Shown: positions 28,790 through 29,671, numbered from the stretch's first letter. The stretch: 64,000 bases of DNA from Deltaproteobacteria bacterium YD0425bin50 (GCA_002753105.1 PDZT01000002.1:1415-65414); one strand, 5' to 3'. Translations and numbers: made by a program. The notes: a model not told the origin generated them from the sequence alone.

Positions 28790-29671
28790 TTAATTACAGG
28801 GAACAAATATCGTTACAACATTATAGATTAAAATATGTGCATACCATCCTGCCCATCTGGCTATACTTGTTGCACACAAAAAACCACTACAAGAGTACCA
28901 ACTTGAATTAGGCCATGACCAACTTGTAGGCCAACAAGGAGGCTGACTATCTGATGGATCAGGCCAGTATGGCTGCCACCACCAAACATCTGGTGGGTCA
29001 GGATTGGGAGTAGTATCTATAGGGGCTAGGGTACTAGTAGTAGTTGTTGTCGTGGTGGTTGTAGTAGTGGTAGTGGTAGTTGTTGTTGTCGTGGTGGTTG
29101 TAGTAGTGGTAGTTGTTGTTGTCGTGGTGGTTGTAGTAGTGGTAGTTGTTGTTGTCGTTGTCGTTGTCGTTGTGGTAGTGGTAGTGGTAGTTGTTGTTGT
29201 TGTTGTCGTCGTTGTGGTAGTGGTAGTGGTAGTTGTAGTTGTTGTTGTTGTCGTTGTGGTTGTAGTTGTACTGGGTATAGTTGTCGTAGTTGTCGTTGTC
29301 GTTATATTACTAAACTCTCGAATTGCCTCAAACGTACCATCAGGATTAACAATGCCTTTGATTTCATAGTTAGTTCCAACTTTTTTAACTTTAAAAGAAC
29401 CTTGAGATTCATTTAAAGTGTATGTATATTCAACTTCATCTTCATCTGGAACATTTAAAACTTCAGATTCAACCAACCGCCTCGCCGAATCAGCTAAATA
29501 TTGAGCACGAACAATACTGATAGAATTAATCTGATTATATGAACTGGTTGTGATCAAAGAGAGTGTTACTGCACCTAATACAGATACAATAACAAAAGAG
29601 ATGATCAAACCAATCAGGATTGCTCCAGAAGAATTGTGGATGTTTTGATATTGTATATGATGAGTTTTCAT
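28790..29671 (-). CDS. PilX-like minor pilin with 78-residue poly-Thr tract and Trp/Cys-rich C-terminal domain
   Basis: The track ORF is 28790-29692. The ATG at 29669-29671 overlaps the upstream pilin stop (TAATG), which favours MKTHHIQ as the start. SGAILIGLIISFVIVSVLGAVTLSLITTS...IVRAQYLADSA resembles the PilX_N hydrophobic helix. Then T8-IPS-T78, followed by 81 aa with 10 Trp and 4 Cys. Confidence 0.7.
   Translation of the reverse strand: MKTHHIQYQNIHNSSGAILIGLIISFVIVSVLGAVTLSLITTSSYNQINSISIVRAQYLADSARRLVESEVLNVPDEDEVEYTYTLNESQGSFKVKKVGTNYEIKGIVNPDGTFEAIREFSNITTTTTTTTIPSTTTTTTTTTTTTTTTTTTTTTTTTTTTTTTTTTTTTTTTTTTTTTTTTTTTTTTTTTTTTTTTTTTTTTTTTTTTTTTSTLAPIDTTPNPDPPDVWWWQPYWPDPSDSQPPCWPTSWSWPNSSWYSCSGFLCATSIARWAGWYAHILIYNVVTIFVPCN
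29036..29302 (-). repeat. ACN-codon (Thr) low-complexity tract with internal exact tandem duplications
   Basis: Codons 131-219 of the track ORF are 86 Thr plus IPS. An exact 33-bp tandem duplication lies at 29079-29111 / 29112-29144 (GTTGTTGTTGTCGTGGTGGTTGTAGTAGTGGTA on the plus strand). A 27-nt word CGTTGTGGTAGTGGTAGTGGTAGTTGT occurs twice (about 29167 and 29208). Confidence 0.9.

Follow-up and report, generated by a model that had tools for sequence, protein, structure and literature searches.

The locus described here raises the question of what a type IV pilus would do with a minor pilin that runs on, beyond its folded part, into 89 residues of almost pure threonine and then closes on a Trp- and Cys-containing module without relatives. 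The gene lies in 64,000 nt of DNA from Deltaproteobacteria bacterium YD0425bin50 (GCA_002753105.1 PDZT01000002.1:1415-65414), and by the window we mean this whole stretch. The answer developed below, which we hold with about even confidence, is that the gene would encode a modular minor pilin displayed at the pilus tip, with a Thr stalk O-glycosylated by the products of an adjacent pair of glycosyltransferase (GT) genes. The protein is laid out as a 123-aa N-terminal module, the stretch T8-IPS-T78 and an 81-aa tail, and its parts are these:

28790..29671, minus strand: whole gene, a modular minor pilin at the PilX/GspK position, 293 aa counted from Met8
29303..29671, minus strand: minimal pilin module, residues 1-123, with helix alpha1 at 12-68 and four beta strands at 81-120 in an AlphaFold2 (AF2) model
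29624..29671, minus strand: putative class III leader MKTHHIQYQNIHNSSG, ending in Gly(-1), from the family alignment A1, with predicted cleavage
29036..29302, minus strand: Thr stalk T8-IPS-T78, composed of in-frame imperfect repeats of 33-45 nt
28793..29035, minus strand: Pro/Trp/Cys-rich terminal module, 81 aa, an orphan defined by composition and frame tests

An alternative ATG at 29692 gives an open reading frame (ORF) of 300 aa (28790..29692, minus strand), in which the start at 29671 is Met8. The ATG at 29671 and the stop codon of the pilin gene upstream (29671..30204) have one base in common.

The threonine tract and its tail

In the Met1 numbering of the 300-aa form, T8 occupies residues 131-138 (window 29279-29302) and T78 residues 142-219 (window 29036-29269), and Thr makes up 86 of the 89 residues of the stalk. 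The 78 codons of T78 are drawn from all four synonyms (ACA 31, ACT 21, ACC 17, ACG 9) in proportions close to those of Thr codons in the long genes of the window (ACA/ACT/ACC/ACG 360/288/166/154), with codon positions 1 and 2 invariant throughout. A run made entirely of ACN codons with genome-like synonymous usage marks the tract as a feature of the protein, neither a product of chance nor a simple trinucleotide repeat. Tandem Repeats Finder resolves it into imperfect repeats, 71-81% identical, with unit lengths of 33, 39 and 45 nt, and the longest exact repeat within it, 56 nt, arises from three of the 33-nt units. These patterns indicate that the tract is under protein-level selection for Thr, and that it lengthens and shortens through in-frame duplications of 33-45 nt. 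It is the only homopolymeric amino acid run of seven or more residues in the window, besides its own antisense poly-Val reading. The ORF that holds this reading (29004..29369, plus strand) was rejected as a gene, being an antisense reading of the Thr-tract DNA, and an intrinsic terminator called within the tract was rejected as a repeat artefact.

The length of the tract is known from the assembly alone and, given the 56-nt exact repeat, a short-read assembly may miscount it by ~11 codons; its frame and its existence are secure. An exact-sequence look-up of the protein (with both starts) and of one neighbouring pilin returned no record in the public collection, and literature searches found no described poly-Thr pilin.

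The tail behind the stalk is unusual in its own right, with 10 Trp, 4 Cys and 13 Pro in 81 aa, set against genome-wide frequencies of 1.1% for Trp, 1.1% for Cys and 4.5% for Pro. It has a Pro-rich start, continues with WPxxS-like mini-repeats (YWPDPS, CWPTSWS, WPNSSW) and finishes in a Cys-containing hydrophobic end (SCSGFLCATSIARWAGWYAHILIYNVVTIFVPCN); a local duplication of the DNA lies within it (TGGCCTAcAAGTTGGT / TGGCCTAattcAAGTTGGT). A frame open for 81 codons occurs in 1.1% of mononucleotide shuffles and in 0.35% of sequences drawn at genome composition. Ten TGG codons are present where 1.2 are expected, an excess of ~8-fold, the maximum in 20,000 shuffles being 7. The codon-usage score is +0.21 in the annotated frame and -0.35 and -1.18 in the other two, both of which meet immediate stops. 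Taken together, these tests indicate that the tail is coding sequence. A preliminary description of this gene had reported T8-IPS-T78, with 86 Thr in 89 residues, and an 81-aa tail with 10 Trp and 4 Cys, all of which the translation and the codon and frame tests bear out.

Relatives of the tail were found neither in a word index of 5.8 billion clusters nor among metagenome contigs or the Pfam/NCBIfam models at E<=10, and its matches to PDB sequences were noise. Three assignments of the tail were tried and set aside. As a C-terminal sorting signal (PEP-CTERM, MYXO-CTERM, CGP-CTERM, LPXTG etc.) it has no Pfam/NCBIfam match at E<=10 and no terminal basic cluster. As a transmembrane (TM) anchor it reaches a maximum Kyte-Doolittle hydropathy over 19 residues (KD19) of 1.36, its final 25 residues being moderately hydrophobic and Trp-rich, and shows no convincing TM helix. 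As a carbohydrate-binding module (CBM) it has no Pfam match, and the architectural analogy alone remains. The reading that we favour for the tail, a small disulfide-bonded aromatic binding module, is speculative and drawn from that kind of analogy.

Might tract and tail instead be an accident, the runaway in-frame expansion of a short linker that came to read into formerly non-coding DNA and so acquired a functionless tail, or an artefact of assembled length? The tract is indeed built from recent 33-45 nt duplications and contains an exact repeat of 56 nt, its length comes from the assembly alone, and the exact protein is absent from the public collection; relatives carry short T/S/P linkers at the same point (STIPSPP in P0025, discussed below), and the tail is homologue-free and holds the local DNA duplication. 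An accident, on the other hand, accounts poorly for 78 consecutive ACN codons of genome-like synonymous usage with zero non-synonymous change, for a tail whose open frame (p ~0.004-0.01) is accompanied by an 8-fold TGG excess and frame-specific codon bias, and for other pilins in which, again, a small Cys-rich end module comes after a Thr tract. We regard an accidental origin as quite improbable.

The pilin module, its family and its operon

A word-indexed search of 5.8 billion clusters with the N-terminal module found no relatives, and neither did a scan of metagenome contigs. With full HMMER, 107 of 1.84 billion representatives matched at E<=1e-3, the best at 1e-10. The alignment of this family (A1) covers residues 1-123 of the target end to end. 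The shared module is ~115 aa long and consists of an invariant Gly, a hydrophobic helix, the motifs LSLxTTS and (R/K)AxYLAESGxR, a small beta region and GIVNxGTxFEAxR, and its end in the target (...FEAIREFSNI) coincides exactly with the start of the Thr tract. On this alignment, at least 107 cluster representatives make up the unnamed family of the module, the module being conserved among them and the C-terminal cargo swapped. Among 53 unfused members the cargo is Laminin_G_3 in nine, MAM in three, DUF7305 in two, a beta-helix in two and Ig/cadherin in one, the rest being unrecognised, and bare modules of 103 and 120 aa without cargo also occur.

Across the 107 representatives, no Thr run exceeds seven residues and no Trp-rich end occurs. 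Some relatives do carry a short T/S/P linker at the same junction (e.g. STIPSPP in P0025, TTTIPSTTT in the target), suggesting that the tract expanded from such a linker.

In 42 of the 107 representatives, proteins of ~1000 aa, the module is fused downstream of a pilin and lies around residue 250-330. Their N-terminal part is a full-length homologue of the 177-aa pilin encoded just upstream of our gene in the window (residues 14-165, E down to 1e-19), and the fusion of both proteins ties the target module functionally to that pilin. The order within the fusions (P0002, P0003, P0006, P0007, P0011, P0022 etc.) is a GFTLIE prepilin, a middle segment, the module and a large cargo. The middle segment holds a CF(V/I)AT motif (e.g. 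CFVATAAxG) in 19 of the 42, and a second class-III-like site, RG^(S/A)LLIGLI (the caret marks the predicted cleavage point), precedes the module; the fusion proteins may be polyproteins that prepilin peptidase cleaves twice.

How far is the module itself a pilin? G16, which corresponds to Gly(-1), and L19 are invariant in A1, and the predicted mature N-terminus, AILIGLIIS..., has Gly at +5 where canonical pilins have Glu. A missing Glu5 is typical of GspK and PilX. The most hydrophobic 19-mer of the protein is AILIGLIISFVIVSVLGAV, with a KD of 2.88. Compared with PDB sequences, the A1 profile finds Geobacter pilin N-termini as its best match (E 0.04), aligning kkG^avLIgLiv on KKG^FTLIELLI. AF2 with A1 gives one long helix and a four-stranded sheet at a predicted local distance difference test (pLDDT) of 87.3 and a predicted TM score (pTM) of 0.65; it replaced a single-sequence model of the same topology with a pLDDT of 64. 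The top Foldseek match in the PDB is 9a1f_R, a chain of 116 residues in a model of the XcpGHIJK pseudopilus (E 0.025, prob 1.0, TM scores 0.56/0.59), and chains of XcpV (GspI) come next.

The standard signatures are missing from the target, which matches neither N_methyl (PF07963 / TIGR02532) nor PilX_N (PF14341) or T2SSK at E<=10. Pfam/NCBIfam scans of module and tail at the same cutoff gave noise only (DUF4330 0.008, phage holin 0.15). Among 16 relatives, PilX_N matches five at E<=1, all below threshold (best 22.9 bits vs a cutoff of 25.5), and N_methyl matches three weakly. The AF2 model of the module, which has ~105 mature residues, lacks an alpha-domain insertion of the GspK type in its sheet. 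Alignment and model mark the module as a true minimal pilin that lacks Glu5, as the PilX/GspK type does, has the size of GspI and escapes current hidden Markov models (HMMs).

The gene is the fourth and last of a four-gene minor-pilin operon, and the first three encode prepilins with the GFTL(I/L/V)E motif that the target lacks. The operon and the other pilus genes of the window are the following:

30668..31159, minus strand: first minor pilin, 163 aa, GFTLIE, GspH/FimU-like (N_methyl E 3.4e-6; GspH E 3.4e-7, sub-threshold)
30243..30662, minus strand: second minor pilin, 139 aa, GFTLLE (N_methyl E 9.7e-6; weak N-terminal GspJ match)
29671..30204, minus strand: third minor pilin, 177 aa, GFTLVE, partner of the target module (N_methyl E 2.9e-5)
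421..6288, plus strand: pilMNOPQ, type IVa pilus alignment complex and secretin (PilM_2, PilN, PilO, PilP and Secretin matches)

On unrelated contigs, homologues of the module stand last in the same four-gene operon, carrying Ig/cadherin cargo at L070/L071 (211 aa) or consisting of the bare module at L073/L074 (103 aa) and L076 (120 aa). At L075, near a contig end, a homologue with two LamG domains (564 aa) has one prepilin gene visible directly upstream. The pilMNOPQ products would assemble and extrude the pilus. A PilY1/PilC beta-propeller (IPR008707) has no Pfam match in the target or in the ORFs scanned in the window. The preliminary description had suggested that the protein may stand in for a missing PilY1-type tip adhesin; this is conjecture, the scan having covered ORFs of the window and no other part of the genome.

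These results settle much of what the preliminary description had said of the N-terminal part. The gene does close a minor-pilin operon, with three N_methyl prepilin genes upstream and homologues in the same operon position, and the region thought to be folded is modelled as helix and four-stranded sheet at pLDDT 87. The N-terminus that had been called PilX_N-like is pilin-like in its invariant Gly(-1), its hydrophobic 19-mer, its Gly at +5 and its AF2 fold, and what falls away is the match to PilX_N itself. Likewise, the PilX identity stands as far as the fourth position and the missing Glu5 go and fails on fold, the closest being GspI/XcpV and not GspK. The contrary case, an N-terminus unlike a pilin and away from pilin genes, did not hold, since the fold is pilin-like and prepilin genes adjoin.

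Several other genes lie next to the pilus genes. Directly downstream of pilQ, a protein of 1518 aa with 8-9 Ig-like repeats (Big_1/invasin-D3; 6375-10931, plus strand) may be a surface adhesin tied to the pilus locus. Upstream of the minor-pilin operon and on the same strand (31549-32433, minus strand) are a FabZ/ApeP-like dehydratase of 177 aa, with sub-threshold matches, and beside it an 82-aa ORF that is NifU-like by eye alone.

The pilus context also bears on a second alternative, in which the protein would stay in the inner membrane as an assembly primer and the Thr tract would span the periplasm as a tether or ruler of ~20-30 nm, its Trp-rich hydrophobic end touching the outer membrane, the peptidoglycan or the PilQ secretin. 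Core minor pilins do prime pilus assembly from the inner membrane, pilMNOPQ is present in the window, 89 extended residues would measure about the width of the periplasm, and the last 25 residues, moderately hydrophobic and rich in Trp, would favour membrane interfaces, even if a KD of 1.36 stays under the usual threshold for a TM helix. The relatives, however, carry cargo of lectin or adhesin type (LamG, MAM, Ig/cadherin), in keeping with outward display, and the other Thr-tract proteins near GT-C genes (below) are secreted, lipoprotein or adhesin-like. We know of no precedent for a periplasm-spanning Thr tether, and we consider this alternative very unlikely.

The neighbouring glycosyltransferase pair

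The genes from which we derive the proposed modification of the stalk lie on the opposite strand and converge on the Thr-tract pilin gene, with an inverted repeat in the spacer:

24671..25372, plus strand: GT2 glycosyltransferase, candidate polyprenyl-phosphate-sugar synthase (Glycos_transf_2 E 4e-19)
25412..28432, plus strand: GT-C-clan membrane protein, 1006 aa, PF10131 (PTPS_related; E 2.3e-38)
28567..28712, no strand assigned: inverted repeat or hairpin between the convergent genes, with 63-nt arms that are 76% complementary

The GT2 protein matches the Pyrococcus dolichol-phosphate-mannose synthase (DPMS) 5mlz over its full length (E 6.5e-6) and, below threshold, the ArnC, PgfS, PpgS and AglJ models. 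The GT-C protein has no match among PDB sequences. GT-C enzymes have a catalytic acid just after the first TM helix, and just past that helix the window protein has the motif TxT(T/I)TTGGDT(A/G)SH(Y/N)Y (26390-26452), of which GGDT(A/G)SH is kept in 52 of 70 loci. Its Asp may be the catalytic-loop acid, on a side of the membrane that the positive-inside rule, applied to short homologues, predicts to be extracytoplasmic. The motif is preceded by a TTTT of the enzyme's own. The family, PF10131, belongs to GT-C clan CL0111, with its function listed as unknown, and is related to PMT, STT3 and TMTC (PMC7801869). Between the GT-C gene and the pilin gene, which are 358 nt apart, the ~90-nt core of the inverted repeat folds at -49.2 kcal/mol (z -10.7); the terminator scan made no call there, and the hairpin could serve as a bidirectional terminator or represent a small repeat element.

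When genomes were scanned with the GT-C protein, 69 loci came up in Bacteria and Archaea, in many of which a GT2 gene adjoins. We surveyed the 1.01 Mb around these 69 homologues for Thr tracts at a strict cutoff (>=18 Thr/30 aa) and a relaxed one (>=12 Thr/20 aa). At the strict cutoff a Thr-tract ORF is present in 11 of the 69 loci; the same cutoff applied to other residues picks out Ser in two loci, Phe in one and the rest in none, besides off-frame readings of ACN codons (Val 10, Arg 4). At the relaxed cutoff, 14 of the 69 loci have Thr-tract ORFs within 10 kb (L005, L007, L008, L009, L015, L030, L032, L038, L046, L048, L050, L057, L063, L068). The control, 133 kb made up of the window and nine pilin-family loci not chosen via GT-C, is small, and in it the target is the sole Thr-tract ORF. 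The one Thr-tract gene of the window is the direct neighbour of the GT2/GT-C pair.

Thr-tract pilins are found at three of the four loci that have bacterial prepilin genes near GT-C. Two of these, from Thermodesulfovibrionales (L063, L057), repeat the layout of the window, GT2 and GT-C followed by a convergent Thr-tract pilin, and their pilins combine an above-threshold N_methyl match with a He_PIG Ig domain, the Thr tract and a Cys-containing C-terminal module. The third (L038, from WOR-1/Saganbacteria) has on one strand GT-C, a radical SAM gene, two GT2 genes, a GspH-like pilin with an inserted Thr-rich stretch of ~85 aa, two further pilins, a protein of 489 aa matched by the A1 module profile, and then PilM. 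In Altiarchaeota (L030, L032), the N-termini of the Thr-tract proteins look like archaeal class III signals. The remaining Thr-tract proteins near GT-C are lipoproteins or secreted proteins with FN3, dockerin or LamG domains.

In eight of the 14 loci (L005, L008, L009, L030, L038, L046, L050, L057) Leu-Pro stands directly after the last Thr run, its counterpart in the window being T78-S-T-L-A-P (29027-29041). This boundary may be a recognition or boundary motif, or else a product of shared repeat ancestry. At L057 a Wzy_C/Wzy_C_2 protein, similar to O-antigen ligase and PglL, is encoded between the Thr-tract pilin and a PilA-like pilin (13864-15690, minus strand), which together with the GT pair makes two candidate routes of pilin glycosylation at that locus.

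It is here that the third alternative has to be weighed, in which the protein is again a modular tip pilin and the GT pair a coincidental neighbour, the Thr tract being unglycosylated or glycosylated by another, general O-glycosylation system and the pair modifying a lipid, a cell-wall glycan or other proteins. Among related GT-C/GT2 pairs, ArnC/ArnT and YfhO act on non-protein acceptors. YfhO, for instance, has a role in teichoic acid (PMC12041528). The Wzy_C gene beside the L057 pilin offers an alternative glycosylation route, and the pair itself is widespread in Bacteria and Archaea without pilin neighbours. A mere coincidence sits less well with an enrichment around the pair that is essentially limited to Thr low-complexity tracts, with the recurrence of GT2, GT-C and Thr-tract pilin in three other lineages, and with the position of the window's sole Thr-tract gene directly beside the pair. 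We judge coincidence unlikely, and more of a contender than either the accident or the tether.

Several observations weigh against glycosylation of a tip-displayed stalk by the adjacent pair. Synteny of the pilin operon with the GT pair was sought in the nearest genomes and is absent, the pair having no adjoining pilins in L001 (70% identity), L002 or L026. The pilin and GT genes are convergent and not co-transcribed, and 55 of the 69 loci show no Thr-tract ORF in the available flanks. The test of proximity inside loci gives a modest result (Fisher p 0.02 with the window counted in) that three loci drive. Surface proteins of DPANN, the candidate phyla radiation and Desulfobacterota may just prefer Thr linkers in general and lie clustered with glycosylation genes. 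As to the protein itself, we infer its processing by prepilin peptidase in spite of the missing N_methyl and PilX_N matches, the tip location of the family is drawn from precedent, and the role of the homologue-free tail as a binding module is a guess, its mini-repeats suggesting recent repeat-derived sequence and not an old domain.

With these reservations, glycosylation of a tip-displayed stalk by the adjacent pair would work as follows. Residues 1-123 form a minimal pilin carrier module with interchangeable C-terminal cargo, a step of which we are close to certain. Through alpha1, the protein would probably enter the pilus tip alongside the three minor pilins encoded upstream, its C-terminus pointing outward, as the precedents of GspK/PilX and of modular pilins suggest. 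The cargo that it carries there is the 89-residue near-pure Thr tract and the orphan 81-aa module, features that are plain in the translation and for which we propose the functions that follow. Pilin O-glycosylation by dedicated enzymes modifies Ser or Thr and takes place in the periplasm. The PF10131 GT-C protein might O-glycosylate the Thr tract at the periplasmic face of the inner membrane, using as donor a polyprenyl-phosphate sugar made by the DPMS-like GT2; we give the transfer and its donor, taken jointly, slightly less than even confidence, on the strength of the recurrent gene neighbourhood and of the analogy to the Pgf/GtrB-PgtC2 and PMT systems. Glycosylated in this way, the tract would become a stiff, mucin-like stalk that resists proteases and measures roughly 20-30 nm, a length that could vary by way of the in-frame 33-45 nt repeat units. 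A spacer of 20-30 nm had been proposed in the preliminary description, and its arithmetic is right, 89 residues at 0.25-0.35 nm each giving roughly 22-31 nm if extended; it presumes an extended chain. The Trp-rich and probably disulfide-bonded end piece could then be a ligand- or surface-binding element, a step that we regard as speculative and somewhat doubtful.

More broadly, and with more doubt than belief, we suggest that PF10131 and the DPMS-like GT2 could form a dedicated poly-Thr O-glycosyltransferase system, common to diderm bacteria and archaea, that builds mucin-like stalks. Its substrates may be type IV pilins of Desulfobacterota, Thermodesulfovibrionales and WOR-1/Saganbacteria, perhaps pilin-like proteins of Altiarchaeota, and other surface proteins. 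Under this proposal the T(n)-L-P boundary would mark the acceptor tract, and the window protein would be an extreme case, a glycan-coated stalk of variable length, ~25 nm, bearing a new Trp-rich binding module.

The binding specificity of type IV pili is mostly understood from a few pathogens, and the locus reveals a sizeable family of minor-pilin carriers, missed by HMMs, that swaps lectin and adhesin cargo at the PilX/GspK position. Cargo on an 86-Thr stalk predicts mucin-like biophysics at the pilus tip, namely stiffness, shielding from proteases and phages, and reach. The main value of the locus lies, we think, in the enzyme-substrate hypothesis more than in the poly-Thr curiosity, as it provides a concrete, testable function for PF10131, a family widespread in Bacteria and Archaea with no known substrate. 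Should the pair indeed glycosylate poly-Thr, the streptococcal paradigm of Ser/Thr-tract glycosylation would extend to diderms and archaea, and a two-gene tool for making mucin-like glycoproteins in bacteria would be at hand.

Elsewhere in the window, a hybrid non-ribosomal peptide synthetase-polyketide synthase (PKS) cluster occupies 36194-63972 on the minus strand. It comprises a 3299-aa protein with aminotransferase, C, A, KS, AT, KR and ACP domains, three PKS proteins (KS-AT; KS-AT-DH-KR-ACP; DH-KR-ACP), and genes for an acyl-CoA dehydrogenase, a 3-hydroxyacyl-CoA dehydrogenase and a HAD protein. Two Lon protease paralogues (13294-15762 and 33605-35983, both plus strand) lie within 20 kb of each other, the second adjoining an alpha/beta hydrolase-like ORF (32712-33587).

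Comparison with known systems

The closest published design is that of the modular pilins, in which an effector module is grafted via a linker onto a pilin carrier and for which a tip location is predicted (Raynaud et al. 2021, PMC8179133). Examples are PilB (vWA) and PilC (ConA/LamG lectin) of S. sanguinis, and CofB of enterotoxigenic Escherichia coli and TcpB of V. cholerae, which have a flexible linker and beta domains (PMC8179133). Our protein shares with them the succession of N-terminal pilin module, linker and distinct C-terminal module, and its relatives carry Laminin_G_3 and Ig/cadherin cargo; it differs in having a linker of 89 near-pure Thr residues instead of a short loop, and in its orphan end module. 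The survey of modular pilins relied on the IPR012902 N-methyl signature together with a recognisable InterPro domain (PMC8179133), and the target, having neither, is missed by that criterion. The preliminary description knew of no PilX or PilY1 equivalent with this architecture. That stands in so far as nothing comparable to the tract or the tail occurs in any of the 107 family representatives and the tail itself is an orphan, and needs qualifying in that pilins with grafted cargo are published (PMC8179133) and that other type IV pilins have Thr tracts (L038, L057, L063).

With PilX and GspK the target shares its place as the fourth gene after three Glu5-containing prepilins, a Gly(-1) followed by A-I-L-I without Glu5, and the weak PilX_N similarity of its relatives. 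It departs from them in lacking a PilX_N match and the GspK alpha-domain insertion, and in its ~105 mature residues. In fold and size it is nearer to GspI/XcpV (PDB 5bw0, 5vtm, 6utu; 9a1f chain R), which likewise combine a long alpha1 with a small antiparallel sheet, but the Foldseek E values are weak (0.025 at best) and identity to the target is 10-16%. GspI itself, moreover, retains Glu5, lacks a C-terminal extension and occupies another place in its operon.

For the proposed glycosylation, the nearest parallel is streptococcal. There, PgfS/PgfM1(/M2) and GtrB/PgtC2, each a GT2 polyprenyl-phosphate-sugar synthase with a GT-C protein, O-glycosylate extracytoplasmic Ser/Thr tracts (PMC12041528; pgf operon PMC5856776). 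The Thr-rich adhesin substrates are encoded in the same cluster, and the glycans shield the tract from proteolysis (PMC12041528). In the window, too, GT2 adjoins GT-C with a Thr-rich extracytoplasmic substrate nearby, and the GT2 weakly matches the PgfS model. The streptococcal GT-C, however, is of the YfhO family whereas that of the window is PF10131, and the system proposed here spans diderm bacteria and archaea, would have type IV pilins among its substrates and is predicted from genes.

Dedicated pilin glycosylation is familiar from other enzymes: TfpW of P. aeruginosa is a membrane glycosyltransferase and oligosaccharyltransferase that modifies pilin, placing D-arabinofuranose on it, and is encoded beside pilin genes, TfpO/PilO and PglL are oligosaccharyltransferases for pilin O-glycosylation, and glycosylation of the pilus blocks phages (10.1101/150227). 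These enzymes belong to another family, and act on a few sites of the major pilin as opposed to an 86-Thr tract on a minor one.

Fungal cellulases couple an O-glycosylated Thr/Ser/Pro linker to a small, aromatic, disulfide-bonded CBM1, and eukaryotic mucin stalks are akin to them. The resemblance to our protein, a carrier, a Thr-rich stalk and a small aromatic Cys-containing end module, is one of architecture only, the tail having no Pfam match (CBM included).

Set beside these systems, the design of carrier plus cargo, a Glu5-less fourth minor pilin, streptococcal glycosylation by GT2 and GT-C, and dedicated pilin glycosyltransferases are already known. New are a carrier family missed by existing models, an extreme poly-Thr stalk on a minor pilin, an orphan Trp-rich end module and, as far as gene neighbourhoods indicate, the association of a GT-C family listed as of unknown function (PF10131) with Thr-tract pilins across distant lineages.

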